A stretch of 58,743 nucleotides of DNA from Terriglobales bacterium (GCA_050745565.1 JBOGKJ010000362.1:1-58743), one strand, 5' to 3'; shown: positions 3,101-57,180, counted from the stretch's first letter. A program made the numbers and translations. Notes: generated by a model from the letters alone, not told the origin.

Positions 3101-3250
3101 GGCGCGGCCGCCCTTTTCTGGACGCCCTCGTCGTTGCTCCCACCCCAAGGCGCAACCGCCTTGGGGACCCCGGGGGTCGGGCTGCGGCCGAAATGCGCTT
3201 GGCGGCAACGCGCGCCCGCTCTGCTCGGGGAACGCGCCACTGGCGCTTTC
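3101..3250 (+). repeat. Intergenic repeat module A, copy A1
   Basis: GCGGCCGCCCTTTTCTGGACGCCCTC..., hairpin CCCCAAGGCG-CAAC-CGCCTTGGGG (3143-3166), core CTTGGCGGCAACGCGCGCCCGCTCTGCTC. The flanking genes are both on the - strand. Confidence 0.9.
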
Positions 3251-3330
3251 ACCCCGTTGGAATTCCGCGGCCCTTCGCACCGATTTTGCCCGCAGTGCAA
3301 ACGGCGCGACTCCCGCGATCTGCCGGAGCG
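3251..3330 (+). repeat. Intergenic repeat module C, copy C1
   Basis: GGAATTCCGCGGCCCTTCGCACCGATTTTGCCCGCAGTGCAAACGGCGCGACTCCCGCGA. Homologous to 9690-9745 and 57325-57400. Confidence 0.8.
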
Positions 3331-3344
3331 GCAGGTCACCGCAG

Positions 3345-4634
3345 TCACCGCTTCCGGGCCGCCAGGAACGGCCCCAGGCTGGCCAGCAGCGATTGCGGTA
3401 CGCGGGCCAGCAACTCAACCTCGTCGGCGGCGTGGTGCTGGTGCAGGATTTGCCCACGCTCGTGCAGGACATGGAGCCAGCGCCCGGCCGGGTGGGGAAT
3501 CCGCAACTGGACCTCGGCGAGCGTCCCCAGGCTCAATTGGCGATCGAGGGTGGCCAGCAACTGGTCCAGCCCGGCGCCGGTTGCGGCACTGACCAGAAGG
3601 GGGTTGGCGCCCTCGGTCGCGGCCGGCGGCTGGGCGTCGCCAAGCCGGTCGGCCTTATTCCAAATCTGGACCTGGGGGGTGTCGGCCACGCCGAGTTCGC
3701 GCAGCACCTGCTGCACCTGCTGTAGTTGGCGCTCGCGCTGTGGCGCGGTGGCATCGGCGACGACGGCCAGCAGGCTGGCCCGGGTGACCTCTTCCAGGGT
3801 GGCGCGGAAAGCGTTGACCAGGCCGGGCGGGAGGTCGCGCACGAAGCCCACCGTGTCGGACAGCAGCACGTTGCGCCGGGACGGCAGGCGGAGGCTGCGG
3901 AGGGTGGGGTCAAGGGTGGCGAACATGCGCGGCGAGGTCAGCACAGTGGCGCCGGTCAGGCGGTTGAAGAGCGTACTTTTGCCGGCGTTGGTGTAGCCCA
4001 CCAGCGCAATCACCGGCAGCGGCACGCTGGCGCGGCGCTGGCGCTGCTGATCGCGCTGGCGGCGGATGCGCTCCATGGAGCGGCGCAGGGTGGCGATGCG
4101 CTGACGGATGCGTCGGCGGTCGGTTTCCAGTTGGGTTTCGCCGGGGCCGCGGGTACCGATACCGCCGCCCAGGCGCGAGAGCGCCGTGCCCCGGCCGGCA
4201 AGCCGCGGGAGGAGGTAGTCCAACTGCGCCAACTCGACCTGGAGCTGGCCCTCGCGCGAGCGGGCGTGGCGGGCGAAGATATCGAGAATGAGTTGGGTGC
4301 GGGCCAGAACGCGCACCCCGATGGCCTGCTCGAGATTGCGTTGCTGGGTGGGAGAGAGGTCGTTGTCGAAGATGACGAGGTCCACGCCCCGGGCGGCGGC
4401 CTCCAGTTCCTCCAGCTTGCCCTTGCCGATCAGCGTGGCCGGATCGGCATGGGCGCGGCGCTGACTCAGTTCGCCAGCGACGTGGGCGCCGGCGCTTTCG
4501 GTCAATTGGCGCAATTCGGCGAGTTGCGCGCTGGCGGCGGGGGCAAAATCGAGGGCGCCGCTGGCGGCAGCCGCTCGCGCGCCGGGCGCGGGGGCGGCGC
4601 CGAGTTGGACGGCCACCAGGAAAGCGGTTTCCAT
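3345..4634 (-). CDS. hflX: GTPase HflX
   Basis: G1 GYTNAGKSTLFN, G3 DTVGF and G4 NKAD motifs. Starts 17 nt downstream of the hfq stop, the classical hfq-hflX pair. Confidence 0.9.
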   Translation of the reverse strand: METAFLVAVQLGAAPAPGARAAAASGALDFAPAASAQLAELRQLTESAGAHVAGELSQRRAHADPATLIGKGKLEELEAAARGVDLVIFDNDLSPTQQRNLEQAIGVRVLARTQLILDIFARHARSREGQLQVELAQLDYLLPRLAGRGTALSRLGGGIGTRGPGETQLETDRRRIRQRIATLRRSMERIRRQRDQQRQRRASVPLPVIALVGYTNAGKSTLFNRLTGATVLTSPRMFATLDPTLRSLRLPSRRNVLLSDTVGFVRDLPPGLVNAFRATLEEVTRASLLAVVADATAPQRERQLQQVQQVLRELGVADTPQVQIWNKADRLGDAQPPAATEGANPLLVSAATGAGLDQLLATLDRQLSLGTLAEVQLRIPHPAGRWLHVLHERGQILHQHHAADEVELLARVPQSLLASLGPFLAARKR

Positions 4635-4651
4635 ATCCGGCGCGCCGCCCT

Positions 4652-4978
4652 TTAGGCGCCCTCGGCCTTCTCCTCGGCCTGCTCCTCGGCCTGCTCCTGC
4701 TCATGGGGCGGAACGACCGCCTGGGCGGCCTCGCGCGGCCGTGGGCTGGAGAAATGGCGCTCGCCCAAAGGCGAGCGCTGCAGCACCACGGTCGAAATGG
4801 CGTGCTTGAAAATCATCTGCTCCTGACTGCCCGCTTCCAGCACCAGACAATACTTGTCGAAACTGCGGATGCGGCCCGAGAGCTTGACGCCACTCAGCAA
4901 GTAAATGGTGAGGGGCAATTTTTCTTTTCTGGCGTTGTTCAGGAACGAGTCCTGGATATTTTGCGCCGGTTTGTCCAT
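4652..4978 (-). CDS. hfq: RNA chaperone Hfq with an acidic Glu/Ala-rich C-terminal tail
   Basis: Sm core [28 protein letters not shown]...[16 protein letters not shown] lies 7 nt upstream of the ATG. Confidence 0.95.
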
Positions 4979-5007
4979 CGTATTGCCTCCAGAGATAATT
5001 CTAAGAG

Positions 5008-5035
5008 CAATTAGCCATTAGCCATTAGCAATTAG
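5008..5035 (-). repeat. Heptanucleotide tandem array (4 units) in the hfq leader
   Basis: The + strand reads CAATTAG CCATTAG CCATTAG CAATTAG. The hfq sense strand reads CTAATTG CTAATGG CTAATGG CTAATTG. The array ends about 30 nt upstream of the hfq ATG. Confidence 0.9.
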
Positions 5036-5115
5036 CGAGGAAGGCTCGGGCGCGGGCATGATCCGCCAAAGTGTGCGCGACGCACGGAGCAGCGGGCCCC
5101 CACAGCCGACTCGAC

Positions 5116-8100
5116 TCAGTGGGGGCCGGTGATGACCGGGCTGACGGCCGGCAACACCGTCCAGCGGTAGGAGCGGGTCGCGGTTTGACCTTGCGAGTCG
5201 GTGGCCTTGATCGTGAAGGCGTAGGTGCCCTGGGCTGAGGCTCCAGGCACGCCGGCCAGCGTACCGTTGGGGTCGAGCGTGACGCCGGGCGGAAGGTTGC
5301 CGGTCTGCAGGCTGAAGCTGTAGGGCGCGTTGCCGAAGTTGGCGGTCAGAATCGCATTATAGGTTTGCCCCACCTGACCCGGCGCAAGCCCGGTGGTGGT
5401 GATCGCCATGGTGGCGCCAGTGAAGATCACTAGATTGAAGCTCTGGGTGGCCTGGAGGCCGTTGGCGTCCTGCACCAGCAGGGTGAAGTCATAGGAGCCG
5501 GCCGAGGCCGAGCCCGGCACGCCGGAAATCTGTCCGATCGGGTTGATCGTCAACCCGGCCGGCAGACTGCCGCCGACCAGGCTGAAGTTGAATGGCGAGG
5601 CTCCGCCCTGGATGCCCATTTGCTGCAAGTAGCCCTGGCCTTCGACGCCGGAGGGCAGTACCAAGGGCGAAATTGCGAACGGATTCACCACCAGCGTGAA
5701 CGGCTCGACCACGCGGAGCCCGTCGGCATCGGTTTCCTGCACGCTGAAGTTGTACACGCCGGCTTGAGTGGGCGTGCCGGTCAGATCCCAGCCCACCGTG
5801 GTGGCGACGCTCTGAACCGCGTTGATTCCCGGCGGCAGCGTGCCGTTCACCACCACCGGCGTATAGGGGCCGGTGCCGTTGGCCATGGTGATGGTCGCGG
5901 TGTAAGCCACGCCCACGGTGGCCGGCAACAGTTGGCGGCTGGCGGCCTGCAGGGCGGCCACGGTGATGGTGACTGGCAGCCGGGCAGTGAGAGTGGGCAC
6001 GGAGCTGTCGGTGACCTGGATGGTCGCGGTCACGACCGCGGCATTGGCGGGCGTGCCGCTGACCACACCGGCCGAGGACAGCGAAAGTCCGGTGGGCAGC
6101 GCACTGCCAACGACCGAGAAGGTATAGGGCGAGGTGCCGTTGACGGCGGTCAGAGTCAGCGAATAAGGCTCGCCCACCGTGGCCAGCGGCACCGCGGCGG
6201 GCGGCACCACGGCCAGGTGCTGGTTCACGGTCATGGTGATGGTCTGCTGGGTGGCATTGCCGGCGTTGTCGTCCACCTCAAAGGTCACATCCACCGCGCC
6301 GGCCACCAGCGGCGTGCCGCTGATCACCCCGGTGGCACCATCGAGTTGGAGGCCGTCCGGCAGCGGGTTCGAGTTGGTCGCCAGATTAAAGGTGAGCCTG
6401 TCGCCGCCGAGCGCGCCGTTGATCGCGGTAATCGAGGCGTCGTAGGGGATGTTGACGTTGCCGTCCGGCAGCGACGAGGTGAGGATGGTGAGCTGATTGC
6501 CTGGCGTATCCTGCACCACCCACAAACCGGAATTGATGTCGCTGGCGAGAATGTAATGCTGGCCGCCGGTGTTGTAGGCGGCCACGCCGTAAACCATCGC
6601 CTTGGGCGGGTTGTCCACCGCCAGATTGGCGCCGTTGGGATCGGGCGAGTCCGGGGGCACGAACGAGCCCAGCAGCACGGGCGGGTTGACGGAGGTTATG
6701 TCGAGGTCCACCACACCGCCAGAGAACCAGGCGACGTAGGCGTGCGGATCGGCCGTGTTGCCGTTCCAAGCGATGCGATTGGCGGTATAGATGCCGTTGT
6801 CGGGCGCGGGATCGGAGAGCGCCTGCGGGATGTCAAAAAAGTTAGCGATGGTCGAAGTGGACGGCGTGGGCAAATCATAGGTGCGCAGATAGCCCCAGCC
6901 GGAATCGTTGCTCAACGGCACCGCCGAGCCCGCACCGCAGACCACGTCCACCGAGGGGTTGAGCGGCAGGTTGGAGACGCCGTCGCCGCTGGGAGGCGCG
7001 ATGGCGGAGGCGCACACCTGGTCGGCAATCAGCAGTTCCGTGTCGCCCATCACCGGCAGCGCCTGGTTGGTGTTGCCCTCGGGGCTGGAGGGAGTCGAGG
7101 TGGTGGCCAGCGAGCTGAGCGGATAGCTGATGTGGTTAACCAGCACCGCCGGGTTGAAGCTGCGCACCGCGGTGGGATCGCTGACGTCGAGCACCACCAC
7201 GCCCTCGTCCCAGTAGCTCAGGTAGGCCAGCTTGTGGTCGGAGGAAAGCTGGATCGAGCTCAGGAACACGCGCTGGTCGGTGCCCTGCACCGCCTGCGGC
7301 AGCCGCGTGCCAGTGGCCGCCAGTACGCCCCAGTTGCTCACCTCGCGCGGCAGCGACGGGTCGGTGACGTCGACAATGCGCAAGTCACCTTCACCGCCAG
7401 CCGCCTCCGAACCCGGCACCGCCGCCAGCGCATAAATTTTGTCCTGGCTGTGATCCACGATTCCGAACGCGTTGACGGGCCCGGGGACGGCGACGATGGC
7501 CACATCGCCGACACCCTGGCCGCCCGAACTCCAGGTGCCGAGCGCCACCGGCTGCGTCGGGTTGGTGACGTCAAAGAACTCGATTGCGGCATTGGTGGCG
7601 CTCGCCAAGCGCGGGTCGCAGGGCTGCTCGGTCACCGCCATCAGGTCGCCGTGGCTGCCGGAGTGAAAGCCGGGCGAGCTGATGCTGGTGGCCACCTTGG
7701 CCTCTTGCTGGCTGGCGCCGGCGACACCGGCGACGGTGGCCACCAGCGTCGGGTTGGAGATCTGGCTGAGATCCACGATTTTGACCCCGGTGGCGGGACA
7801 ATCGCCGGGGTAGCCGCGGGTACCCACGTAGGCATAGCTGACGCCGCTGTTGGTGGCCGCGGCGACGGTAACGTCCGCATTCTGGCCGTGACCACCGAGG
7901 GCAAGATGGGCGACGGTTGTAAGCGTGGTGGCGGGCGCGCGCACTTTCATCAGGTAGGTGAAGGCCGCCGTTTGCGGACTCGAGGAGCTGTCCACGGCTT
8001 TGATGACGATGGGGTAAATTCCCGGCTGCGTGGGGGTGCCCGAGAGCACGCCCGCTGGACTGAGGATCAGGCCCTGCGGCAGCGCCGCATCGGTTGAAAA

Positions 8101-8364
8101 CGTCACCGGTGCTATCGCGCTCACACCCGTCTGCCCGACGTTGGTCTGAAAACCATAGGCATAGGGCGAGCCAGCCACCGCGCCGGGCAAATGGCCGGTC
8201 GAGGCCGACGACAGGATCAGAAAATTGGCCGTCGCCGGCACAAAGGGCGTGGGCGCCGCGGTGCTGCCCCCGCACGCGCTCAGCCCCAACCCGACAAGCG
8301 CGGCCAAGGCGGCGCCCAGGCAGCGCGCGCGGACGCTATAGTGGCGATAACGGTAAACTCGCAT
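5116..8364 (-). CDS. Large secreted lipoprotein with putative-Ig (He_PIG-like) modules flanking an LVIVD-type beta-propeller region
   Basis: Signal peptide with lipobox LSAC. Six LPxGLxLxxxGxxSGTP modules. Central motifs VKIVDLS, LRIVDVTDPS, VVVLDVSDP and VVDLDITS resemble LVIVD repeats. Confidence 0.7.
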   Translation of the reverse strand: MRVYRYRHYSVRARCLGAALAALVGLGLSACGGSTAAPTPFVPATANFLILSSASTGHLPGAVAGSPYAYGFQTNVGQTGVSAIAPVTFSTDAALPQGLILSPAGVLSGTPTQPGIYPIVIKAVDSSSSPQTAAFTYLMKVRAPATTLTTVAHLALGGHGQNADVTVAAATNSGVSYAYVGTRGYPGDCPATGVKIVDLSQISNPTLVATVAGVAGASQQEAKVATSISSPGFHSGSHGDLMAVTEQPCDPRLASATNAAIEFFDVTNPTQPVALGTWSSGGQGVGDVAIVAVPGPVNAFGIVDHSQDKIYALAAVPGSEAAGGEGDLRIVDVTDPSLPREVSNWGVLAATGTRLPQAVQGTDQRVFLSSIQLSSDHKLAYLSYWDEGVVVLDVSDPTAVRSFNPAVLVNHISYPLSSLATTSTPSSPEGNTNQALPVMGDTELLIADQVCASAIAPPSGDGVSNLPLNPSVDVVCGAGSAVPLSNDSGWGYLRTYDLPTPSTSTIANFFDIPQALSDPAPDNGIYTANRIAWNGNTADPHAYVAWFSGGVVDLDITSVNPPVLLGSFVPPDSPDPNGANLAVDNPPKAMVYGVAAYNTGGQHYILASDINSGLWVVQDTPGNQLTILTSSLPDGNVNIPYDASITAINGALGGDRLTFNLATNSNPLPDGLQLDGATGVISGTPLVAGAVDVTFEVDDNAGNATQQTITMTVNQHLAVVPPAAVPLATVGEPYSLTLTAVNGTSPYTFSVVGSALPTGLSLSSAGVVSGTPANAAVVTATIQVTDSSVPTLTARLPVTITVAALQAASRQLLPATVGVAYTATITMANGTGPYTPVVVNGTLPPGINAVQSVATTVGWDLTGTPTQAGVYNFSVQETDADGLRVVEPFTLVVNPFAISPLVLPSGVEGQGYLQQMGIQGGASPFNFSLVGGSLPAGLTINPIGQISGVPGSASAGSYDFTLLVQDANGLQATQSFNLVIFTGATMAITTTGLAPGQVGQTYNAILTANFGNAPYSFSLQTGNLPPGVTLDPNGTLAGVPGASAQGTYAFTIKATDSQGQTATRSYRWTVLPAVSPVITGPH

Positions 8365-8442
8365 CAGGCAAGCATCGGGAGGCTGGCAGCCGGGGCGTGA
8401 AAAACTGATGCTTCAGTGTACCCCAACCGTCTCCAGGAACGC

Positions 8443-9429
8443 ATGAAAACCCGGCTCATCGCCGCCCTTGCCGTGCTCGTTGTGGCCGCCGCCGCCGCGG
8501 CATTGTGGTGGATGTGGTCACCCGGACCGCGCCTGGCTCAGCCGGTACTGGTGGCGCTGGCCCCCGGCTCGAGCCGGGCCACCATCGCGCACCAACTGGC
8601 CGCCAGTGGCGTGGTGCGCAGCACGGCCGGCTTTGAACTCTGGACGTTGCTGCACCGGCGCCGCACGCTGAAAGCCGGCACCTACCAGTTCCATGGCGGC
8701 GAGCCGGTCAGCGCGGTGTTTGCGGCGCTGGCCTCCGGGCGCGTCTACACGCTGGCGGTGACGGTGCCCGAGGGCTACAACCGTTTCGATATCGCGCGCG
8801 AACTGGGCCGGCAGGGGCTGGCTGCCCCCGCCGCGTTCCTGACCGCTACGGCGGACCCGGGGCCGATTCGCGACCTCGATCCGGAGGCGGTGTCGCTCGA
8901 AGGGTACTTATATCCGGCCACGTATCGGATCGCGCCCGGCACGCCGGTGGAAGCAATCGTTGCCATGATGACGGGCCGCTTCCGCCAGCAATTGCGGCGC
9001 GACGGCACTCCGCCCGCCGGCGTCCATGCCTGGGTGACGCTGGCGTCGCTGGTGGAAAAGGAAACGGCGGCGCCGGCGGAGCGGGCGCTGGTTGCGGGCG
9101 TGTTCACCAACCGACTCGCACGCGGGCTGCCGCTGCAATGCGATCCGACGGTGATCTATGCGGCGCTGCTGGCCGGCAACTATACGGGCACGCTGGGCCG
9201 CGCGGATCTCGAGCGCGCCTCGCCTTACAACACCTACCGCCAGCCCGGACTGCCGCCCGGACCCATCGCCAACCCCGGGCAGGCGGCGCTCACGGCGGCG
9301 GCGCACCCAGCCGTGACGCCCTACCTTTACTTTGTAAGCGACGGCCACGGCGCCCACCGCTTCGCACGCACGCTGGCACAGCAGGAACGCAACGTCCAGC
9401 TCTATCTCAGAACGCTGCACGTCCGCTAA
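8443..9429 (+). CDS. mltG: Endolytic murein transglycosylase MltG (YceG-like)
   Basis: N-terminal TM anchor, LysM-like N domain and the LPLQCDPTVIYA motif typical of YceG/MltG. The ORF opens at GTG 8416. ATG 8443 (MKTRLIAALAVLVV) is preferred as the start but is uncertain. Confidence 0.85.
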   Translation: MKTRLIAALAVLVVAAAAAALWWMWSPGPRLAQPVLVALAPGSSRATIAHQLAASGVVRSTAGFELWTLLHRRRTLKAGTYQFHGGEPVSAVFAALASGRVYTLAVTVPEGYNRFDIARELGRQGLAAPAAFLTATADPGPIRDLDPEAVSLEGYLYPATYRIAPGTPVEAIVAMMTGRFRQQLRRDGTPPAGVHAWVTLASLVEKETAAPAERALVAGVFTNRLARGLPLQCDPTVIYAALLAGNYTGTLGRADLERASPYNTYRQPGLPPGPIANPGQAALTAAAHPAVTPYLYFVSDGHGAHRFARTLAQQERNVQLYLRTLHVR

Positions 9430-9439
9430 GTGCCTCGCG

Positions 9440-9750
9440 CATTGTTGGCGCGGGCCCCGGCGCGTGCTCGGCTGAGACGCTCGCACCGCCGTCGCCGCAC
9501 TCGGTGGGCATGGGTTGGCCGGGCGTTCGAGCCCCAGCCCAGCCTGCGGTTGACGTGGCCATGCCACGTCAACCTGGGGCCGCGCCGGCCGCGTCTCCCC
9601 GGGGGCGCAAACGCATGCGCTTGCCCCTTCGGAATTACGACCACCCCAACACGCAAGCGTGCCGGGGGCCCCGGTACGCGGCCCTTTGCGCCGGCTTTGC
9701 CCGCCGTGCAAAAGGCGCGACCCCCGCGAAGGGTCGTTCAGCCACCTCCA
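9440..9750 (+). repeat. Composite mosaic repeat: B-prime 5' part, module E (with an 11-bp-stem palindrome at 9549-9573), A-type hairpin variant (9644-9667), module C copy C2
   Basis: TTGGCGCGGGCCCCGGCGCGTGCTCGGCTGAGACGCTCGCACCGCC matches 20828- and 41484-. GTTGACGTGGC-CAT-GCCACGTCAAC. TTTGCCCGCCGTGCAAAAGGCGCGACCCCCGCGA matches C1 and C3. Confidence 0.85.
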
Positions 9751-9784
9751 CGGTCGACTTTGTCGTTCTGATATAGTGACCGCC

Positions 9785-14341: not shown

Positions 14342-14350
14342 GAGCCGAAG

Positions 14351-14520
14351 CGGCGCGGCCGCCAGTCTCAGGACGCCCTCCCGCAGCTCCCACCCCAAGG
14401 CGCAAGCGCCTTGGGGGCCCGGGGGTCGGGCTGCGGCCGGAACTCGCTTGGCGGCAACGCGAGCCCGCTCTGCTCGGTGAACGCGCCACCGGCGCCTTCT
14501 CCCGTCCAAGTTGCCTCGTC
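14351..14520 (+). repeat. Module A, copy A2 (long 3' variant)
   Basis: Full-length copy with hairpin 14393-14416. Core CTTGGCGGCAACGCGAGCCCGCTCTGCTC. 3' end CCGTCCAAGTTGCCTCG. The flanking genes are both on the + strand. Confidence 0.9.
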
Positions 14521-14590: not shown

Positions 14591-17197
14591 ATGTCCTTCG
14601 CCCGCCACTGTCGTCTCCTCACCCTTGCCGCCGCGCTGTCGGTCGCGGCGTCGCTCGCCGGTTCAGCGCTGGCCCAAGGCACGGCCGCCGACTACAACCG
14701 CGCTGAACATCTCAGCCAGCATTTTCGCGACTTGGCGCTGAATCTGCCGGGGCCGACGAACTGGATCGCGGGCAGCGATCACTTCTGGTACCACAAGACG
14801 GTGCCCGGAGGAATCGAGTTCATCTGGGTGGACGCCGCCACCGCGACCAAGCGCCCGGCGTTCGATCACGCGCGCCTCGCGGCCGCGCTCACCACCGCGA
14901 CCGGCCACACCTACAGCGCCACCACGCTGCCGTTTTTTGATCCGCCACCGCCGGGCCGGCGGGGCGGTTTCGGCCGCGGCCGCGGCGGCGTGGGCGGGCT
15001 CGAGTTTGTGGAGGGCGAGCAGGCGATCGCGTTTGGGCTGGCCGGCTACCAGTGGCGGTGCGATCTGCAGAGCTACAACTGTGCGCGCGGAGCGGCGATC
15101 ACCGGCGGCCGTGGCGGGCGCGGCGCGTTCGGGCGCGGCCCGCAGGCGGACCCGCCCTATGCACAGGTTGGGTTGGGGGCGAGCCTCAGCGGGATGCGTG
15201 GCACAGCCGCGCAGGGGCCCGCGCCAGAAAATGCCGCGACTCAACTACCGCCCTATGATCCCTATGGGTTTGACGCGCCACCGATGATGGACAACGACGT
15301 CGTGGACGGCGTTCAGAACCTGGTGCCGGATGCGACCGCGGCGGCGGCGGCGGCGATGCAGGCAGCGCCGCCCGCGCCGCCCCGTACCAACGGCCCCACT
15401 TTCAAAACCTCCGCTGACGGCCAGTGGGAGGCCTACATCGAAAACTACAACGTCTTCCTGCGCCATCCCGGCGACAAAACCGGCACGCCGCTCAGCTACG
15501 ACGGCTCCGAGGGCAACTACTATAGCCTGCGCACCGTCGCCTGGTCGCCCAACTCCGAGTTTCTGGCCGCCTACGCGACCCGCCCCGGCTACCAGCGCCA
15601 CATCCAATACGTCGAGAGCTCGCCCACCACGCAGGTGCAGCCCATCGCCTTCCAGGGTCCGCTCTACAACAAGGCCGGCGACACGCTGCCCATCGCGCAC
15701 CCGGCGCTGTTCTCGATCGCCACGCGGCACGAGACTGAAATCAGCGACGCGCTGTTCCCCAACCCATTCAATCTGACGCCGCCGGTCTGGTGGAAGGACA
15801 GCCGCGGCTTCACCTTCGACTACAACCAGCGCGGCCACCAGGTCTACCGCGTCATCCAGGTGGATGCGCCCTCGGGCCGCGCCCGCACGCTGATTGACGA
15901 GACCAGCAAGACCTTCATTGACTACCAACCGCTGGGGGCGAACCCCACCGACACCGGCAAGACGTACCGCTACGACGTGAACGACGGCCGCCAGATCATC
16001 TGGGCCTCGGAGCGCGACGGCTGGGAGCACCTCTACCTGTACACGTTCGCGGCCGGCGGCGCGCCCACCATCCACAAAATCACCGCCGGCGACTGGCCGG
16101 TGCGGGCCGTGGACTACGTGGACCCGGTGCAGCACCAAATCTGGTTTGAGGCCAGCGGCACCATGCCCGGCCAGGACCCCTACTTCCTGCACTATTACCG
16201 GATCAACTTCGACGGCACCGGCCTGGTGCAGTACACCAGCGCCGACGGCGACCACACGGTCAGCTTCTCGCCCGACCGCCAGTACTACACCGACACCTGG
16301 TCGCGCGTGGATCAGGCGCCGGCCTCGGAACTGCGGCGCACGTCGGATCAGAAAGTGCTGCTGCCGCTGGAGCAGGGCGACATTTCGAAACTCGAAGCCG
16401 CCGGCTGGAAGCCGCCGCTCGTGATGCACGCCAAGGGGCGCGACGGGGTGACCGACATCTGGGGCATCATCTGGCGGCCGACCAACTTCGACCCGCAGAA
16501 GAAGTATCCGGTGGTGGAGAGCATCTACGCCGGCCCGCAGGGGAATTTCGTTCCCAAAACGTTCAGCCCGCGGGCCCAGGCGCTCGCCGAGCTGGGCTTC
16601 GTCGTGGTCCAGATTGATGGCATGGGCACCAACAACCGCAGCCGCGCCTTCCACGACGTGGCCTGGAAGGACCTCAAGGACGCGGGCTTTCCCGACCGCA
16701 TTCTCTGGCACAAGGCGGCGGCGGCGCGCTATCCCTGGTATGACATCAGCCAGGGCGTCGGCATTTACGGCACCTCGGCCGGCGGGCAGAGCGCGCTGGG
16801 CGCGCTGCTGTTCCATCCGGATTTCTACAAGATCGGTGTCTCCAACAGCGGCTGCCACGACAACCGCATGGACAAGATCTGGTGGAACGAGCAGTGGATG
16901 GGCTGGCCGGTGGGCCCGCAGTACGCCGAGGACTCGAACGTGGACAATGCCTGGCGGTTGCAGGGCAAGCTGCTGCTGGTACTGGGTGAACTCGACAACA
17001 ACGTGGACCCGTCCTCCACGCTGCAGGTTGTCAACCAACTCATCAAGCACAATAAGCGCTTTGATCTGCTCGAAGTCCCCGGCGGCGGCCACGGCGCCGG
17101 CGGCGCTTATTACCAGCACCTGCTGGAGGATTTTTTCGTTCACAACATGCTGCACGTGGAGCCGCCGGTGTGGAACACGGCGGCGGCCAGTCGTTAA
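14591..17197 (+). CDS. S9-family serine peptidase (dipeptidyl-peptidase IV-like N-terminal propeller plus prolyl-oligopeptidase catalytic domain)
   Basis: Signal peptide [29 protein letters not shown]. Nucleophile elbow [10 protein letters not shown]-terminal Asp/His region LGELDNNVD...GGGHG. GAGGTG lies 6 nt upstream of ATG 14591. Confidence 0.85.
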
Positions 17198-20555: not shown

Positions 20556-20657
20556 CATTGACGGGCGCGGGCCCCTGCCCGGCTACGCCGTGCATCCCGC
20601 TTGGGCTCGCGCCGGCCCGGGGCCCGGTGAGCCCAAGCCGGCGCGAGCCTCGCGGGG
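20556..20657 (+). repeat. Module B, copy B1
   Basis: CATTGACGGGCGCGGGCCCCTGCCCGGCTACGCCGTGCATCCCGCTTGGGCTCGCGCCGGCCCGGGGCCCGGTGAGCCCAAGCCGGCGCGAGCCTCGCGGGG, with a long imperfect hairpin CTTGGGCTCG...TGAGCCCAAG (CGAGCCCAAG in copy B3). Confidence 0.9.
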
Positions 20658-20827
20658 CGGCGAAGGGCACAGTCCCGCGCCGGTTTGTGTATTCCGGATG
20701 GCGGGGGCCGGGGGCTCAGGCCCGGTTCAGAGCCGGTCGGGTAAACTGCCCGCGATTACGGGATGGCTCTGGGCAGGCGTTCAGCGATCCGCATCGGGCG
20801 TGAGCTAGGTGGGCCAGCGGCGGCATC

Positions 20828-20953
20828 CATTGACGGGCGCGGGCCCCTGCCCCTGCTCGCTGAGACGCTCGCAGCGCCGGACCCGCACTCGAAGGGCTGT
20901 GGAGCGCCGGCCCGGGGGCCCGGCGAACCCAAGCCGGCGCGAACCTCGCGGGG
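20828..20953 (+). repeat. Module B-prime, copy B'2 (B ends with a different ~60-nt internal segment)
   Basis: Same 5' CATTGACGGGCGCGGGCCCCTGCCC and 3' GGCCCGGCGAACCCAAGCCGGCGCGAACCTCGCGGGG as B. The internal segment is CTGCTCGCTGAGACGCTCGCAGCGCCGGACCCGCACTCGAAGGGCTGTGGAGCGCCGG. Confidence 0.9.
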
Positions 20954-20963
20954 CTGCCGCGGC

Positions 20964-28462: not shown

Positions 28463-28612
28463 GGCGACGCGGCCGCCCTTCTCAGGACGCCCTCCCGCTG
28501 TCACCCCAGCGCGCCAGCGCACCGGGGGCCCCGGCACTGGTCGGGCTGCGGCCGGATTCGCTTGGCGGCAACGCGCGCCCGCTCTGCTCAGGGCGCCTCG
28601 AAGTTGCCCGGT
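28463..28612 (+). repeat. Module A, copy A3 (short 3' variant, alternative hairpin sequence)
   Basis: GCGGCCGCCCTTCTCAGGACGCCCTCCCG, hairpin CCCCAGCGCG-CCAG-CGCACCGGGG, core identical, 3' CAGGGCGCCTCGAAGTTGCCC. Confidence 0.9.
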
Positions 28613-28620
28613 CACGCGCG

Positions 28621-28691
28621 ACTGCGGAGCCCCGCCACGTCAAACTGGGGCCGCGCGCCCGCGTCGTTCCCCGGAGGCGCAAGCCAGCCCC
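28621..28691 (+). repeat. Module E, copy E2
   Basis: GCCACGTCAAACTGGGGCCGCGCGCCCGCGTCGTTCCCCGGAGGCGCAAGC aligns with 9563-9612. Confidence 0.75.
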
Positions 28692-29064: not shown

Positions 29065-29091
29065 CGGCAGCCTTGGCGTAGCTGATAGTGG

Positions 29092-29219
29092 ACGGCGCGG
29101 CCGCCCTTCTCAGGACGCGCTCCCGCTGCCACCCCAGCGCGCCAGCGCGCCGGGGGCCCCGGCACGGGTCGGGCTGCGGCCGAGATTCGCTTGGCGGCAA
29201 CGCGCGCCCGCTCTGCTCA
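29092..29219 (+). repeat. Module A, copy A4 (3' end replaced by module B)
   Basis: Hairpin CCCCAGCGCG-CCAG-CGCGCCGGGG (29132-29155). The core is identical and is joined directly to B at 29220. The flanking genes are convergent. Confidence 0.9.
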
Positions 29220-29318
29220 TTGCCGAGCGCGGGCCCCTGCCCGGCTACGCCGGGCATCCCGCTTGGGCTCGCGCCGGCCCGGGGCCCGGCGAGCCCAAGC
29301 CGGCGCGAGCCTCGCGGG
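29220..29318 (+). repeat. Module B, copy B3
   Basis: Near-identical to B1 (CGAGCGCGGGCCCCTGCCCGGCTACGCCGGGCATCCCGCTTGGGCTCGCGCCGGCCCGGGGCCCGGCGAGCCCAAGCCGGCGCGAGCCTCGCGGGG). Confidence 0.9.
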
Positions 29319-29325
29319 GGAGCGT

Positions 29326-33240: not shown

Positions 33241-33430
33241 GGCGCGGTCCAGCGCGGGCTCGGCGGAGACGCTCGCAGCGCCGTCCCCGCACGCGATTTG
33301 TGGCGGCGCGGCCGCCCATCTCTGGACGCCCTCCCGTTGCTCCCACCCCAAGGCGCGAGCGCCTGGGGCGTGCCCGCTCTGCTCGGCGAACGCACCACCG
33401 GCACCTTTACCCGTCCAAGTTGCCTCGCCG
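33241..33430 (+). repeat. B-prime fragment (33241-33300) plus module A copy A5 (internal ~45-nt deletion)
   Basis: GGAGACGCTCGCAGCGCCGTCCCCGCAC, then GCGGCCGCCCATCTCTGGACGCCCTCCCGTTGCTCCCACCCCAAGGCGCGAGCGCCTGGGG joined directly to CGTGCCCGCTCTGCTCGGCGAACGC...CCGTCCAAGTTGCCTCG. Confidence 0.85.
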
Positions 33431-39088: not shown

Positions 39089-39125
39089 ATCTATATAACC
39101 CGCGGCTGAGCCCGCTCGTGGCAAA

Positions 39126-39157
39126 TTGTTGGCGTGGGCCTCAGCGCGGCTTCGCGG
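39126..39157 (+). repeat. Module D, copy D1
   Basis: TTGTTGGCGTGGGCCTCAGCGCGGCTTCGCGG matches 57181-57210. Confidence 0.75.
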
Positions 39158-39216
39158 TGGGCGGACCGCTGGCGGGCGGCCGGCCGGCGGGCGTGCGGGG
39201 ACGGGCGGGCGCAGCG

Positions 39217-39362
39217 GCACGGTCGCCCTTCTCAGGACGCCCTCCCGATGCTCCCACCCCAAGGCGCAAGCACCTTGGGGGCCCGGGGGGTCGGGCTGCG
39301 GCCGGAATTCGCTTGGCGGCAACGCGCGCCCGCTCGGCTCAGGGCGCGTCCAAGTTGCCTTG
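39217..39362 (+). repeat. Module A, copy A6 (short 3' variant)
   Basis: Full copy between two - strand genes. The core has one change (CGCTCGGCTC). It lies in frame inside the artefactual 1343-aa ORF. Confidence 0.9.
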
Positions 39363-41303: not shown

Positions 41304-41333
41304 CGAGAGCGCGGGAGCGCCGGCTGCGGTTCG

Positions 41334-41482
41334 CGGCGCGGCCGCCCTATTCTGGACGCCCTCCCGTTGCTCCCACCCCAAGGCGCACGCGCCCTGGGGG
41401 CCCCAGGGGTCGGGCTGCGGCCAAAATTCGCTGGGCGGCAACGCGCGCCCGCTCTGCTCAGGGCGCGTCCAGGTTGCCTCGT
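41334..41482 (+). repeat. Module A, copy A7 (short 3' variant)
   Basis: GGCGCGGCCGCCCTATTCTGGACGCCCTCCCGTTGCTCCCACCCCAAGGCGCACGCGCCCTGGGGG..., core CTGGGCGGCAACGCGCGCCCGCTCTGCTC. The flanking genes are convergent. Confidence 0.9.
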
Positions 41483-41483
41483 A

Positions 41484-41590
41484 TGGACGGGCGCGGGCCT
41501 CTGCCCGTGCTCGGCTGAGACGCTCGCACCGCCGTGCCCGCACTCGAAGGGCTGTGGAGCGCCGGCCCGGGGCCCGGCGAGCCCAAGCCG
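41484..41590 (+). repeat. Module B-prime, copy B'4
   Basis: GGACGGGCGCGGGCCTCTGCCCGTGCTCGGCTGAGACGCTCGCACCGCCGTGCCCGCACTCGAAGGGCTGTGGAGCGCCGGCCCGGGGCCCGGCGAGCCCAAGCCG. Confidence 0.9.
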
Positions 41591-41640
41591 ACCCCCTGAC
41601 CGCGCTCCGCGGCGAGTGCAGCCATGCACGCCGCGGCGAC

Positions 41641-42162: not shown

Positions 42163-42173
42163 GGCAACCTGGA

Positions 42174-45060: not shown

Positions 45061-45071
45061 GATCGTGATCC

Positions 45072-46526: not shown

Positions 46527-47113
46527 AACAAATCAAAAACGAAGCTCTCGCCGTCCAGGCCGGCTTCCAGCCCCGGCACGCCCGAGAACCGCATCGTGAA
46601 TACACCCTTCACCAAGTCCATGAGGGCGACGGCCGCAGCCTGCGTGTTGACGGCGCGCAACTCGCCCGAGCGCACCCCGGCATCCAGCACGCCCGCCAGA
46701 TAGGAGGCCGCCTCCAGGTACAGCGCATGCATCGGCCCATCTTTGGTCCGGCACATGTGCCCAAACTCGGTCACGTACATCCGCACAAACTGCTCGTCGG
46801 AGCGCAGGAACTCGAAACGCACCCGCAGCCCCGCCTGAATCTTCGCCCGCGCGCCTTCAACGGCCTCCATGTCGCATTTCATCTCGTCCAACATCGTCCG
46901 GAAGCGCGAGCTCAGGGCGGCCCAGAAAATGGCGTCCTTGCTGGCGTAATAGAGATAGATAGTGCCCTTGGCGACGCCGGCCTCAGCCGCAATCAGGTCC
47001 ACGGTCGCATCCGCATAGCCGTGCTCGCCGAAGACCTTGCGGGCGGCCTCAAGAATTTCCGCCTCACGGAATTCGGTCAGCGCCTGGCGGCGAGTTTTGC
47101 CTTGCAATGTCAT
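46499..47113 (-). CDS. TetR/AcrR-family transcriptional repressor
   Basis: HTH ILEAARKVFGEHGYADATVDLIAAEAGVAKGTIYLYYASKD. First gene of the efflux operon. A palindromic operator lies 12 nt upstream. Confidence 0.9.
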   Translation of the reverse strand: MTLQGKTRRQALTEFREAEILEAARKVFGEHGYADATVDLIAAEAGVAKGTIYLYYASKDAIFWAALSSRFRTMLDEMKCDMEAVEGARAKIQAGLRVRFEFLRSDEQFVRMYVTEFGHMCRTKDGPMHALYLEAASYLAGVLDAGVRSGELRAVNTQAAAVALMDLVKGVFTMRFSGVPGLEAGLDGESFVFDLFWNGCGAKA

Positions 47114-47124
47114 GTCATTCTTAA

Positions 47125-47140
47125 GACTGACTGGTCAGTC
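47125..47140. promoter_or_regulatory. Palindromic operator candidate for the TetR repressor
   Basis: GACTGAC-TG-GTCAGTC (7-bp arms), 12 nt upstream of the tetR ATG, in the only low-GC stretch of that gap. Confidence 0.6.
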
Positions 47141-47241
47141 AATTTATTACAACACCATTCTTACGCGCGGCGGCGGCGGGTGTCAAGCCAATTTAGGGGG
47201 ACAAAAGCAGGGACGGCTGAGGCCGGGCGCGGTGTATGGCT

Positions 47242-47757
47242 TCAGGATGCGAGCGCGCTGGGCTGCAAGGCCTTTTCTAGGGCAAGGAGGCGGACTTTGA
47301 TGCCAAGCCCGCTGCGGCCGGCGTAGCCGACCAGGGCGCCATCGCTGCCAATCACGCGATGGCAAGGCACCACGATGGGGAGCGGGTTTCTGCGATTCGC
47401 GCCGCCGACGGCGCGGCAGGCTTTGGGGCGGCCGACAGCGCGGGCGACCTGGGCGTAACTGGCGGTGGCGCCGTAGGGGATGTCGAGCAGCGCCTTCCAG
47501 ACGCGCTGCTGAAACGGCGTGCCGACCCAGTCGAGCGGATAGTCAAAGTTCTGGAGCGAACCGCTGAAGTAGGCTTGCAGTTGCTGGGCGAGCTCGGCGG
47601 TGGCGCCGGCGGAGGCAGGAGCATCGGTGGGGACGGGAGCGCGGCCGAATTGAATGGAACGGGCGCCACGATTGGATATGAGCAGCGTCAGCGGGCCGAT
47701 GGGAGAATCCATCACCGACCAATGGAGAGCGCTGGTCACAGTTTCAGGGTAACGCAT
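47242..47757 (-). CDS. ogt: Methylated-DNA-protein-cysteine methyltransferase
   Basis: Active-site PCHRVIGSDG and the helix-turn-wing YGATASYAQVA. An alternative start exists at 47712 (MDSPIGPL). Confidence 0.9.
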   Translation of the reverse strand: MRYPETVTSALHWSVMDSPIGPLTLLISNRGARSIQFGRAPVPTDAPASAGATAELAQQLQAYFSGSLQNFDYPLDWVGTPFQQRVWKALLDIPYGATASYAQVARAVGRPKACRAVGGANRRNPLPIVVPCHRVIGSDGALVGYAGRSGLGIKVRLLALEKALQPSALAS

Positions 47758-47797
47758 TTAGAGCAGAGGCGGCACGGTCGCCGTTTCGAAGTTGGCG

Positions 47798-47965
47798 GCG
47801 GCGCGGCCGCCCTTTTCAGGACGCCCCATCCCTGACAATTCCAGCGCGCAGGTGCGTCGGGTGCCCCCTGGTCGGTCTGCTGTCGCAATTCGTTTGGCGG
47901 CAACGCGCACCCGCGCTGCTCGGTGCACGCGCCAGCGGCGCCTTCACCCGTCCAAGTTGCCTGGT
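47798..47965 (+). repeat. Module A, copy A8 (most divergent copy, long 3' variant)
   Basis: GGCGCGGCCGCCCTTTTCAGGACGCCCC..., core TTTGGCGGCAACGCGCACCCGCGCTGCTC, 3' CCGTCCAAGTTGCCTGG. The flanking genes are divergent. Confidence 0.8.
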
Positions 47966-48007
47966 TAACCTCCCAGCGGCGGGCTGCGGCAAGGCTACCA
48001 TGGAGGC

Positions 48008-50047: not shown

Positions 50048-50138
50048 CATTATTTGGCGCGGGGCCTGGCGTGGCACGGCCACCCGCTTGCATTACTTGG
50101 CGCGGGGCCTGGCGTGGCTCCGCCACGCAACCCGCTTA
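50048..50138 (+). repeat. Module F: two tandem ~43-48-nt units immediately after the mlaD-like stop
   Basis: CATTATTTGGCGCGGGGCCTGGCGTGGCACGGCCACCCGCTTG followed by CATTACTTGGCGCGGGGCCTGGCGTGGCTCCGCCACGCAACCCGCTTACG. The second unit holds the hairpin GCGTGGC-TCC-GCCACGC. Confidence 0.85.
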
Positions 50139-50339
50139 CGATTGTGCGGGCGTCCAGCGCATGCGCCGGCGGAGCCAGCCAGTGCGCCGCGCAGCGTGCT
50201 ATGACCACGCTGTCACGCGCATGAAATATCCTGCAGCTTATGTTTTTAGTTTGACTCTAAGCCGGTTGTGGACATACAACCAAGTAACATCTACGCCCTA
50301 TTCCGGGCGGCACTCGGACGAAAGAGGAGCGACTTTTTT

Positions 50340-55793: not shown

Positions 55794-55797
55794 CCTT

Positions 55798-55950
55798 CGC
55801 GGCCAGGCCAGCCGCACTTTTCTGAACGCCCTCCCGTAGCCACTCCGGCGTTGGTCGGGCTGAGGCCGGAATTCGCTTGGCGGCAACGCGCGCCCGCTCT
55901 GCTCGGTGAACGCGCCGCCGGCGCTTTCACCCGCCCAAGTTCCCTCCTCC
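55798..55950 (+). repeat. Module A, copy A9 (central hairpin missing, long 3' variant)
   Basis: CGCGGCCAGGCCAGCCGCACTTTTCTGAACGCCCTCCCGTAGCCACTCCGGCGTTGGTCGGGCTGAGGCCGGAATTCGCTTGGCGGCAACGCGCGCCCGCTCTGCTCGGTGAACGCGCCGCCGGCGCTTTCACCCGCCCAAGTTCC. Confidence 0.85.
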
Positions 55951-56021
55951 GGTGTCTCCATCAGCACCCTGGGGCGCATCCAAGCGCGCTGGGCCATCGC
56001 AATGGACCAGAGGAGACACTC

Positions 56022-56900
56022 ATGACCACGAACAATTCACAGTTGGCGGCGGCTTTCTTCTCCGACACAGGCAAGGCGGAGAAGGCGGTAAGAGCGTTGC
56101 GGCAGGCAGGCTTCGCCCAGATCGGCGTAGCCGCGCAGGATGAAAACAAGGAACGCAAGGTCGCTGAGCGCGGGCCGGCGCAGCCGGGCGTGGCGGTAAG
56201 CCCGGATGCGGGCCCGGAGCTGCGCGAGTCCATGGGCGAGAGCGAGTACGCCGACTCGGGCGATCTGCGCGGAACGCTGCTGGCCGCCGGGTTCAGCGAG
56301 GACCAGGCCGACCACTTTGAACAGCAGATCTCGGACCATGGAATATTGGTCACCGTGCAGGCGCCGGAGGAGCGCTCGGAGGAGGCGCGGCGGACGCTCG
56401 AAAGCTGCGGCGGCGTGCTGGGCCCGGCTCCGGAAGCGCGCACCACGGCGGCAGCGCCGATGCCGGTGCGGACGGCGGCAGTGCCGTCGGCGGCGCCCGC
56501 GGCCGACATGAGCGGGATGCGCCGCATCCAACTGCGGGGCGAGCTGCTGCGCGTCCACACGGATCGGGTGCAGCGGGGCGAAGCGCGCATATCCAAGGAG
56601 GTCGTGACCACGCCCGAAACCGTCGAGGTGCCGGTGTCACGCGAAGACCTGGTGGTGGAAACGCATCCGGCCGCGGCCGGCACGCCCGCCAGTGGGCCCA
56701 TCGCCGAGGGCGGCGAAATTCGCGTACCGCTCAGCGAGGAGCACGCGCGGGTGGAAAAGGTGCCGGTGGCAATCGAGGAAGTGGACATCGGCAAGCGGAC
56801 GAGCGAAGGGGTGGAACACGTCACCGAGCAGGTCAAGCGGGAAAAACTGAAGTTGGAAGATATCTCCCGCGATCAGCCTGGCGCCGACCGCGCCGCCTGA
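56022..56900 (+). CDS. YsnF/AvaK (DUF2382) domain stress-associated protein
   Basis: N-terminal AAFFSDTGKAEKAVRALRQAGF (general-stress 17M-like). C-terminal duplicated DUF2382 pattern (VSREDLVVETHP...VPLSEEHARVEKVPVAIEEVDIGKR). AGGAGA lies upstream. Confidence 0.75.
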   Translation: MTTNNSQLAAAFFSDTGKAEKAVRALRQAGFAQIGVAAQDENKERKVAERGPAQPGVAVSPDAGPELRESMGESEYADSGDLRGTLLAAGFSEDQADHFEQQISDHGILVTVQAPEERSEEARRTLESCGGVLGPAPEARTTAAAPMPVRTAAVPSAAPAADMSGMRRIQLRGELLRVHTDRVQRGEARISKEVVTTPETVEVPVSREDLVVETHPAAAGTPASGPIAEGGEIRVPLSEEHARVEKVPVAIEEVDIGKRTSEGVEHVTEQVKREKLKLEDISRDQPGADRAA

Positions 56901-56938
56901 GCGCCGGCCAGCGGGCGGAGCAGGGATAGGCTGGGGCG

Positions 56939-56966
56939 CCGTCCGAGCCCACTGGGACTCGGACGG
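56939..56966 (+). terminator. 9-bp-stem hairpin downstream of the DUF2382 gene
   Basis: CCGTCCGAG-CCCACTGGGA-CTCGGACGG lies 39 nt after the stop. It is followed by CCCTTCTCCC, which is only weakly T-rich. Confidence 0.35.
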
Positions 56967-57074
56967 CCCTTCTCCCACAAGGACGCCCGATCTCCGCGCG
57001 GAGCCGGGGCGATGCGCGGGGAGTTCCGCGCCCATAAGTGCAGGATCAGGGCCGGCTGTAGCCGGGCAGAGCCG

Positions 57075-57180
57075 GCACGGCCGCCCTTCTCAGGACACCC
57101 TCCCGATGGTCCCACCCCAAGTCGCAAGCGCCTTGGGGCCCCGGGGACGCGCGTCCGCTCTGCTCAGGGCGCGTCCAAAT
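57075..57180 (+). repeat. Module A, copy A10 (middle segment deleted, short 3' variant)
   Basis: GGCACGGCCGCCCTTCTCAGGACACCCTCCCGATGGTCCCACCCCAAGTCGCAAGCGCCTTGGGGCCCCGGGG joined to ACGCGCGTCCGCTCTGCTCAGGGCGCGTCCAAAT. Confidence 0.85.

Follow-up and report, generated by a model that had tools for sequence, protein, structure and literature searches.

Intergenic repeat modules co-oriented on one DNA strand in a contig of an uncultured Terriglobales bacterium

Repeat modules between the genes of the contig

The window, that is, the whole stretch of 58,743 nucleotides analysed here, is a complete 58.7-kb contig from a metagenome-assembled genome (MAG) of an uncultured soil bacterium of the Terriglobales (Acidobacteriota). 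Approximately 30 copies of short repeat modules lie between its genes, ten belonging to module A (115-170 nt) and the others to at least six further module families. Overall, the modules are 35-170 nt long, contain several different hairpins and combine in variable order. Profile searches with E-values up to about 0.01 generated 30 matches on the + strand (the ten module A copies, one partial hairpin copy and 19 matches from six other module profiles) and one match on the − strand, which was intragenic; the other − strand matches were discounted as self-complementary hairpins matching their own sequence. As 14 of the 23 listed intergenic gaps contained modules, the family was regarded as high-copy and extragenic. 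Copies are spaced 0.6 to 14 kb apart, and the genes between them include hfq-hflX, suf, recN and exbBD-tonB.

The ten A copies were all located on the + strand with nhmmer. A1 (3099..3254, E = 1.7e-43), between hflX and an OPT transporter gene, and A6 (39213..39362), between an ADOP permease gene and a DUF698 gene, are flanked by − strand genes on both sides and are antisense to both neighbours. Five copies lie between + strand genes: A2 (14348..14511, E = 1.3e-43; BNR/sortilin gene and S9 peptidase gene), A3 (28463..28616; HAD hydrolase gene and cupin gene), A5 (33300..33420; tonB and ADOP permease gene), A9 (55805..55940; M28 peptidase gene and DUF2382 gene) and A10 (57070..57184; DUF2382 gene and response regulator gene). 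A4 (29091..29222; cupin gene on +, recN on −) and A7 (41332..41484; lysR gene on +, DUF5946 gene on −) occupy convergent gaps, and A8 (47797..47957; MGMT gene on −, hypothetical gene on +) a divergent one. These flanking orientations, which the sequence-only reading had listed for all ten copies, were correct when checked with Pfam. Direct A copies bracket three small gene units, the cupin gene (A3/A4), DUF698 plus lysR (A6/A7) and DUF2382 (A9/A10). A3 and A4 share 95-96% identity, and A8 is the most diverged copy (71-80% identity to the others). Sub-modules are optional: A9 lacks the a2 hairpin, a3 is deleted in A5 and A10, and A4 is without the a5 tail and abuts a module C copy.

The partial copy, an isolated a2 hairpin of module A, was found at 9638..9675 (+, E = 0.0022). 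Among the other families, likewise matched by nhmmer on the + strand, the head family comprises module B at 9448..9521 (E = 3e-18, with alignment) and at 33242..33300 directly 5′ of A5, module C at 20556..20661 (96% identity with 29218-29319) and at 29218..29323 directly 3′ of A4, a B/C hybrid at 20828..20957 overlapping the 5′ part of a provisional ORF (20763-21416), a B/C copy at 41483..41597 directly 3′ of A7, module G at 39122..39155 (E = 3e-9) 5′ of A6, a G/C-like copy at 57176..57262 3′ of A10, and, at 50054..50150, a tandem pair of head motifs (identical over 22 nt, at a distance of 43 nt) with a weak module C match (E = 0.0098). Module D was found at 3234..3318 (E = 2.8e-25) 3′ of A1, at 9675..9729 (E = 1.1e-13) and at 57307..57391 (E = 1.4e-25), module E at 9563..9610 and at 28634..28682 3′ of A3, and module F at 153..192, close to the contig end, and at 57473..57511.

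At its 5′ end, module A has a small GC hairpin (CGGC-GCG-GCCG, only 4-6 bp) followed by CTTTTCT or CTTCTC. A second hairpin, unlike the first, is found 10-20 nt short of the 3′ end. The 3′ half folds as GGCAAC…hairpin…GTTGCC, and repeat conservation stops about 4 nt past GTTGCC. The a2 hairpin showed compensatory changes at three pairs, and none of 500 shuffles reached the observed pairing or covariation score; its pairing was slightly better on the − strand (93%) than on the + strand (88%). Little covariation was seen beyond one hairpin, and folding z-scores of the whole module were about zero on both strands. Neither terminal inverted repeats nor target-site duplications were found at the ten A copies or at L003, a module A insertion in a second Terriglobales MAG. 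Comparison of the left flanks of 12 copies revealed no shared base beyond a G at position −1, with no conserved 4-5-nt target, and no conserved tetranucleotide was seen at hairpin feet or element ends. Searches with the covariance models of Rfam 15 found nothing that reached gathering scores, nor any hit within the modules at E-values up to 5.

Orthologous sites in relatives are empty of modules (L007, L010), and the L003 insertion is a 114-117-nt version of module A that lies within a GT2 glycosyltransferase gene and preserves its reading frame. The modules are thus lineage-specific insertions. Module copies in frame and free of stop codons occur both in this GT2 gene and in the S9 peptidase gene of the window. 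Outside the contig, the family was found in only a few NCBI Terriglobales MAGs, a genome-collection scan yielding three short loci. No transposase or recombinase family was matched in Pfam among the scanned genes of the window, and RAYT, IS200, Y1 and tnpA/tnpB were all absent from these matches.

Orientation of the modules relative to genes and to the probable direction of replication

Thirteen independent intergenic regions, eight between +/+ genes, two between −/− genes, two convergent and one divergent, are all co-oriented (P = 2.4e-4). The forward core of module A, GGCGGCAACGCGCGCCCGCTCTGCTC, is always on the + strand, with no match expected in shuffled sequence, and the 26-mer reverse-complement core gave eight matches at up to three mismatches, each on the − strand. 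The earlier claim that every copy of module A and of the other modules reads in the same sense on the + strand was borne out by the 30 + strand profile matches, which include all intergenic copies. In both unambiguous −/− regions (2540-3344 and 39110-39432), the modules are antisense to the neighbouring genes, and a contig of a related MAG (L002) has the same antisense arrangement. A strand rule had a likelihood of about 1 and the best transcription-coupled model one of about 8e-4, a fit approximately 1000 times worse. Identity among the A copies is 71-95%, and, A3/A4 excepted, each copy is separated by 18-53 kb from the one that it most resembles; therefore, recent local duplication does not explain their co-orientation. 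These results support, for this contig, the proposal of the sequence-only reading that repeat orientation follows the DNA strand and not the flanking genes.

The sole inverted copy, at 15162..15247 (− strand; E = 6.4e-6, match 15179-15232), belongs to the head/module C family; this 86-nt fragment lies in frame within the S9 peptidase gene. A perfect direct repeat of 10 bp, CCGCCCTATG, borders it on both sides (15152-15161 and 15248-15257), and it consists of a module C fragment joined to unrelated sequence, with weakly similar ends, AG(G)TTGRGT. The segment is missing from nine homologues, and third-position GC dips there. It may represent a templated repair insertion instead of DDE transposition. 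As this copy is intragenic, the earlier observation that intergenic gaps contain no reverse-complement core stands.

GC skew at four-fold sites, calculated on the + strand, was +0.023 for + genes and +0.168 for − genes (36 genes, with large gene-to-gene scatter), and 66% of the coding bases are on the + strand. The skew and the coding share suggest that the contig lies within a single replichore, with + as the leading-strand sequence. These two features are the one indirect indication that the repeats may spread, or be retained, in concert with replication, a possibility suggested by their co-orientation.

Possible origins of the strand polarity

We favour, with a probability of roughly 0.42, the reading that the modules are non-autonomous mosaic repeats whose insertion is strand-polar and coupled to the replication fork, and that the contig lies within one replichore. 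The modules, which are lineage-specific and bear hairpins, would have a REP/BIME- or MITE-like lifestyle; insertion at the fork would impose polarity relative to the DNA strand, and the position of the contig inside one replichore would best explain why all copies point one way. Polarity would then stem from insertion, presumably not from selection. Replication-linked orientation bias is known for IS200, IS200/IS605, IS607, IS91, IS110 and ISL3 (PMC3971601), and for IS608 and ISDra2 the lagging-strand template is the site of insertion, other members of their family being oriented accordingly in genomes (PMC5027513). For module A, the favoured route would be mobilisation as ssDNA by an enzyme acting in trans and encoded outside the contig, possibly an HUH/Y1 enzyme (IS200/IS605 TnpA or RAYT) or one from an orientation-biased family such as IS110 or IS91. 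Several features fit this reading poorly. The a2 hairpin pairs slightly better on the − strand, which would be the leading-strand and not the lagging-strand template. The 5′ hairpin measures only about 4 bp, the window holds no Y1, RAYT or other transposase gene, and the lack of a conserved 4-5-nt 5′ target at module A argues against an IS200/IS605-type element. The variable module order is not predicted by a simple one-element model. The insert at 15162-15247, the only one with clean junctions, carries in its 10-bp duplication a signature of DDE transposition or templated repair and not of HUH enzymes, and is inverted as well.

Alternatively, the polarity could be maintained by selection, for a function at the DNA level or one related to collisions, and not be created by insertion, which we consider rather unlikely. 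The modules could be polar elements of chromosome architecture (long analogues of KOPS or Chi, oriented nucleoid or gyrase sites) or strongly transcribed small units that, like rRNA and tRNA genes, would be tolerated solely in the direction of fork movement. The full co-orientation of intergenic copies, the presence of modules in almost all intergenic gaps of some size (14 of 23 listed), the compensatory changes that preserve one hairpin and the age of the copies implied by 71-95% identity, which would have given selection time to act, agree with such a function. A core chromosomal function, however, is difficult to reconcile with the absence of the elements from the examined orthologous sites and their presence in few Terriglobales MAGs, and selection in general with the free loss of sub-modules (a2 in A9; a3 in A5 and A10), the scarcity of covariation apart from one hairpin and the absence of promoter- and terminator-like sites from the modules across the 20-kb segment that was scanned (28001-48000).

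Transcription-linked modules, such as 3′ or 5′ UTRs, terminator or stabiliser hairpins or cis-regulatory RNAs, would favour the sense of the neighbouring gene, and the strand lock would be only apparent, reflecting the two thirds of genes on +, with antisense cases as tolerated exceptions. Seven of ten A copies do start close to the stop codon of a + gene (3-30 nt past it, 170 nt for A10), five end 46-88 nt upstream of a + gene start, the 5′ GC hairpin is followed by CTTTTCT or CTTCTC, and only two −/− regions in the window put this idea to the test. Gene direction is nevertheless not followed in those two regions, in the two convergent and one divergent regions or in L002, and the likelihood comparison given above disfavours it. 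Terminator prediction did not pick up the 5′ hairpin with its short T-tract, and no sigma-70-like promoter was found in modules (28001-48000), while the Rfam searches and folding z-scores likewise lend no support, making this explanation decidedly unlikely.

A further candidate is ordinary DDE-type MITEs, for which contact between transposase and replisome (for example through the beta clamp or TnsE-like targeting) would produce the strong orientation bias. Several DDE families are known to be biased in orientation, but most show no consistent replication-linked bias, a significant one occurring in a minority of chromosomes only (PMC3971601). The insert at 15162-15247, with its direct repeat and weakly similar ends, is what such an element might leave; this sole duplication-bearing copy is, however, inverted, contains only a fragment of module C and may be templated repair, and module A lacks terminal inverted repeats and duplications at its ten copies and at L003, so that we regard this origin as quite improbable. 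Recombination sites of a cassette system resembling integron attC sites, which are always co-oriented irrespective of cassette gene direction, would account for the co-orientation, the three bracketed gene units and the AAC and GTT triplets in GGCAAC…GTTGCC that recall R′′/R′ boxes, but are highly improbable, as CGGCAAC and GTTGCCT fail three of four and two of four degenerate positions of RYYYAAC/GTTRRRY, about 90 conserved nt precede the putative R′′ box, up to 14 kb with housekeeping operons (hfq-hflX, suf, exbBD-tonB) separate copies, and the window contains no tyrosine recombinase gene.

More broadly, we tentatively raise the doubtful possibility that these modules represent an undescribed mosaic-repeat family of Acidobacteriota confined to one strand per replichore, reflecting either a new fork-coupled ssDNA mobilisation system that lacks the canonical REP/RAYT or IS200 architecture or a long polar marker of replichore orientation maintained by selection. 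If so, repeat orientation alone would show the direction of replication in fragmentary MAGs of this lineage.

Comparison with known repeat systems

Integron attC arrays have closely spaced sites, single promoterless cassettes and intI nearby. The modules resemble these arrays and the Vibrio cholerae repeats in co-orientation, single-strand folding and gene units between direct copies, whereas they depart from the R′′/R′ consensus, enclose housekeeping operons over as much as 14 kb and have no integrase gene nearby; the boxes, the 0.6-14 kb spacing and the lack of a recombinase gene among those found speak against an attC array. Module A does not have the form of a DDE-type MITE either, with neither terminal inverted repeats nor a fixed target-site duplication.

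REP sequences are palindromes of 20-40 nt with a conserved 5′ GTAG-type tetranucleotide, usually arranged as inverted pairs (REP/iREP, REPIN). The REP/BIME and RAYT (TnpA-REP) systems of Enterobacteria and Pseudomonas are similarly abundant, extragenic, hairpin-built and variable mosaics of motif types without terminal inverted repeats or target duplications, and in a proposed RAYT-based model BIMEs spread via ssDNA at the fork, their suggested substrate (PMC3333891). Membership in REP/RAYT, systems that the sequence-only reading had cited as a parallel, was not supported: the modules are longer (35-170 nt overall, 115-170 nt for A), have no conserved 5′ tetranucleotide, form no inverted pairs and include no inverted intergenic copy, and no RAYT or other Y1 gene is present in the window. 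The pneumococcal BOX (boxA-B-C) and Rickettsia RPE elements share optional sub-modules (here a2 and a3) and in-frame intragenic copies with the modules; neither family is known to be confined to a single DNA strand regardless of transcription.

From IS200/IS605 elements and PATEs, their derivatives without a transposase gene, the modules differ in being mosaics recombined in different orders, in the very short 5′ hairpin, the dissimilar end hairpins and the lack of a conserved 4-5-nt left target of module A, and in the absence of tnpA/tnpB from the window. [quoted passage not shown]

Orientation of the repeat modules

Profile HMM searches of the window, run with filters off and counting + strand matches at E values up to about 0.01, gave 11 matches for module A, 4 for B, 6 for C, 3 for D, 2 for E, 2 for F and 2 for G on the + strand. 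The − strand yielded one real match, at 15179-15232 (E = 6e-6), within the ORF of an S9 peptidase; the remaining − strand matches were self-complementary hairpins matching themselves. A sensitive BLAST comparison of every intergenic gap with the window, also repeated at looser settings, returned 149 same-strand and 3 inverted matches, all three of the latter at one site in the S9 peptidase ORF. The 26-mer quoted in the sequence-only reading is the reverse complement of the module A core, and its eight matches (8/8) are on the − strand, which places the forward core on + in every case. The statement of that reading that the intergenic gaps hold no reversed copy was thus borne out, and the gene contexts it gave for the ten module A copies (A1 to A10 in order) were correct in 10 of 10 cases.

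The 14 module-bearing intergenic regions comprise eight between +/+ gene pairs, two −/−, two convergent, one divergent and one at the contig end. Counting regions rather than copies and omitting the contig-end region, the chance of 13 regions all being co-oriented is P = 2.4e-4, and a model giving elements a preference for the direction of neighbouring genes reached a likelihood of 8e-4 at best. The earlier claim that orientation follows the strand and not transcription therefore stands, and the strand-locked, transcription-indifferent orientation is real on this contig.

In the gene map, based on third-position GC and Pfam, the window, which is a complete contig (68% G+C), begins with a − strand block of OPT, hflX, hfq and He_PIG, followed on the + strand by yceG, BNR/sortilin, S9 peptidase, BNR/sortilin, a hypothetical gene, the suf operon, rrf2, HAD and cupin. 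Next are recN (−); exbB, exbD, tonB and an ADOP permease (+); an ADOP permease and DUF698 (−); lysR (+); DUF5946, MFS, hlyD, OEP, tetR and MGMT (−); and finally, on the + strand, a hypothetical gene, mlaD, TonB-dependent receptor, M28 peptidase, DUF2382 and response regulator. No transposase or recombinase family was matched among the window genes scanned with Pfam. The gene of a 1,518-aa BNR/sortilin-like protein contains four tandem 285-nt (95-codon) repeats at 12581-13720, 66-74% identical to the reference copy. The two ADOP permease paralogues converge on a 584-nt gap that is free of repeat modules and carries a strong hairpin (11 pairs, 8 G-C) with a T-tract at 36206-36233 (−), and a 33-nt direct repeat, its copies 91% identical at a spacing of 66 nt, lies upstream of the response regulator gene at 57510-57608.

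An assembly artefact was rejected as the source of this layout. Window 1-12095 is covered at 99.94% identity by an independent NCBI assembly, GCA_050745545.1, of a near-identical strain from a Terriglobales MAG series (contig L004), and the DUF698-lysR unit at about 39.3-41.4 kb is matched by a 2,032-nt Logan contig (L008), both ends of which lie within repeats; because two independent assemblies reproduce these parts of the window, the layout is not the product of one assembly. Moreover, the divergence and short length of the repeat copies speak against their having collapsed in assembly, and chimeric joins would not enforce a single orientation. L004 ends at most 1 base from window position 1, and as two assemblies break at one place, a longer repeat probably lies just beyond the contig end.

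Module anatomy and distribution

Module A is itself modular. Part a1 is a small hairpin, CGGC-GCG-GCCG, then CTTCTCAGGACGCCCTCCCG; a2 is an optional 10-bp hairpin, CCCCAAGGCG-CAAG-CGCCTTGGGG; a3 is GGTCGGGCTGCGGCCGGAATTCGCTTGGCGGCAAC and a4 is GCGCGCCCGCTCTGCTC; and a5 is one of two alternative tails, each with a terminal TCCAAGTTGCCTCGT. A9 lacks the a2 hairpin, and A5 and A10 lack a3. Modules B, C and G share the head CATTGnnGGCGCGGGCCyC and differ in their bodies. Modules are combined in varying orders (B→A, A→C, A→D, A→E, G→A, A→G→D→F), with a constant relative orientation whatever the order. Inverted termini, a target duplication and a conserved flanking tetranucleotide were all absent from the ends of module A.

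Among module RNA structures, the a2 hairpin alone is supported: compensatory changes at three pairs maintain pairing, and its pairing and covariation scores were reached by none of 500 shuffles. Pairing is slightly better on the − strand (93% vs 88% on +), since A·C on the + strand becomes G·U on the − strand. Outside a2, no evidence of a conserved global fold was obtained on either strand, whole-module RNA folding giving z-scores near zero and an alifold covariation term of about 0 on both. No module matched Rfam at gathering scores, nor with the cut-off relaxed to E = 5, and scans of 28001-48000 for sigma-70 promoters and intrinsic terminators found nothing in the modules.

Several duplications adjoin or involve modules. 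Upstream of the TonB-dependent receptor gene, at 50054-50118, the head motif (TTGGCGCGGGGCCTGGCGTGGC) is duplicated in tandem as two exact 22-nt copies 43 nt apart. A7 and the first part of the adjoining B/C module lie between two copies (41314-41324 and 41556-41566) of an 11-bp direct repeat, GGAGCGCCGGC; the second copy belongs to the module B consensus, and the arrangement may reflect nested insertion or a scar left by recombination. The ADOP permease gene (−) contains a 57-nt stretch (37274-37330) that recurs in the same orientation and at 91% identity at 39153-39209, just upstream of that gene's start and adjoining module G and A6. Three small gene units lie between direct module A copies, namely cupin (28463-29222, between A3 and A4, which are 95-96% identical), DUF698 with divergent lysR (39213-41484) and DUF2382 (55805-57184). 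Module A copies are 71-95% identical to one another and, except for A3/A4 around the cupin gene, the closest relatives are 18-53 kb apart; the co-orientation thus did not arise through recent duplication in place.

Sequence comparison shows the repeat modules to be insertions. In another Terriglobales MAG (JBOGKL010000430.1, 1768-1882), a 114-117-nt module A form a1+a3+a4+a5, without the a2 hairpin, lies in frame and stop-free within a GT2 glycosyltransferase gene, between ...EKKVRQ and (W)ESAGGS.... Of the loci reached via ADOP-permease relatives, the syntenic locus in a more distant relative (L007) has empty A4 and A5 sites and one module C copy, and an ADOP orthologue 80% identical (L010) has no modules nearby; in the other two (L005 and L006), modules A, B and C are absent and the sole match in each is a weak one to module D (E = 4e-4). 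A degenerate-core scan of the genome collection identified at least three short MAG contigs, every one carrying a single copy, and a protein search with six-frame translations of module A, aimed at catching spurious ORFs on other contigs, gave five real matches on short NCBI contigs. Among the matches listed, the repeat family is known from a few NCBI Terriglobales MAGs only. The JGI metagenome collection gave no match to an exact 28-mer and one to the degenerate core, within a coding region and judged to be chance; the plasmid collection gave no match to the family. Strain-level contigs duplicate the window (L004) or break at repeats (L008), and no presence/absence polymorphism was seen among them.

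The single inverted copy lies in a 96-nt in-frame insertion (15152-15257) in the S9/DPP-IV peptidase gene, consisting of an 86-nt inverted fragment (15162-15247) and one copy of CCGCCCTATG, the 10-bp sequence that borders the fragment on both sides as a perfect direct repeat. The corresponding segment of ~30 residues, which precedes the DPPIV_N domain and falls within a low-complexity linker, is missing in nine homologues and coincides with a third-position GC dip and the inverted module C fragment. Reverse orientation is therefore physically possible, and the 10-bp repeats indicate that a target-type duplication was produced on at least this occasion, a pattern that agrees with DDE transposition or templated repair and not with HUH transposition. 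The insert was treated as an atypical event because only about its first 55 nt are homologous to module C. As the in-frame insertions in the glycosyltransferase and peptidase genes show, the elements also remodel proteins.

Possible replication link and candidate mechanisms

The polarity may be linked to replication. Within the window, raw GC skew and skewed-oligomer counts were uninformative as replication markers, being dominated by gene content, whereas skew at four-fold degenerate sites was positive on the + strand for both gene orientations (+0.023 for + genes, +0.168 for − genes). Its replication-type component is about +0.10 and its coding-strand component about −0.07. As the + strand also holds 66% of coding bases, the window suggests one replichore in which + is the leading-strand sequence and the lagging-strand template, with large gene-to-gene scatter of the four-fold-site skew. 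The same skew on short related contigs was too noisy, and one of them (L002) disagrees with the window. GGGAGGG (8 on −, 0 on +) was dropped as a KOPS-like marker, as it does not fit GGGNAGGG and lies on the strand inferred to be lagging.

Orientation bias from fork-coupled insertion is established for IS200/IS605, IS607, IS91, IS110 and ISL3 (PMC3971601, PMC5027513), and ssDNA at the fork has been proposed as the substrate in REP/BIME spread (PMC3333891). The most economical mechanism for the present repeats, at a probability of about 0.4, would be that an enzyme encoded at another place in the genome inserts non-autonomous elements in a polar, fork-coupled way. A rival source of the fixed orientation would be selection, either for a polar function or for one that avoids collisions. 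Another would be a transcription-linked preference with exceptions, against which the low likelihood of the gene-sense model speaks. Replisome-biased DDE MITEs would suit the duplication at the S9 insert, and the ends of module A offer them neither inverted termini nor a target duplication. The last rival, attC-like recombination sites, is unlikely, since the defining tests for attC identity failed.

The co-orientation would acquire wider meaning if it flips at ori and ter: the repeats would then be a clean natural case of fork-coupled insertion or replication-oriented selection of non-autonomous elements, a pointer to the responsible enzyme, and a practical replication-direction marker for contigs of the lineage. 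To our knowledge, hardly any description exists of interspersed repeats in uncultured soil Acidobacteriota. As the defining tests for REP/BIME membership and classical MITE identity failed, like those for attC sites, and IS200/IS605 derivatives fit only partly, the repeats were filed under no named family, as a variant of 'interspersed mosaic repeats'. Unlike them, REP/BIME and classical MITEs do not have complete strand co-orientation that ignores transcription.
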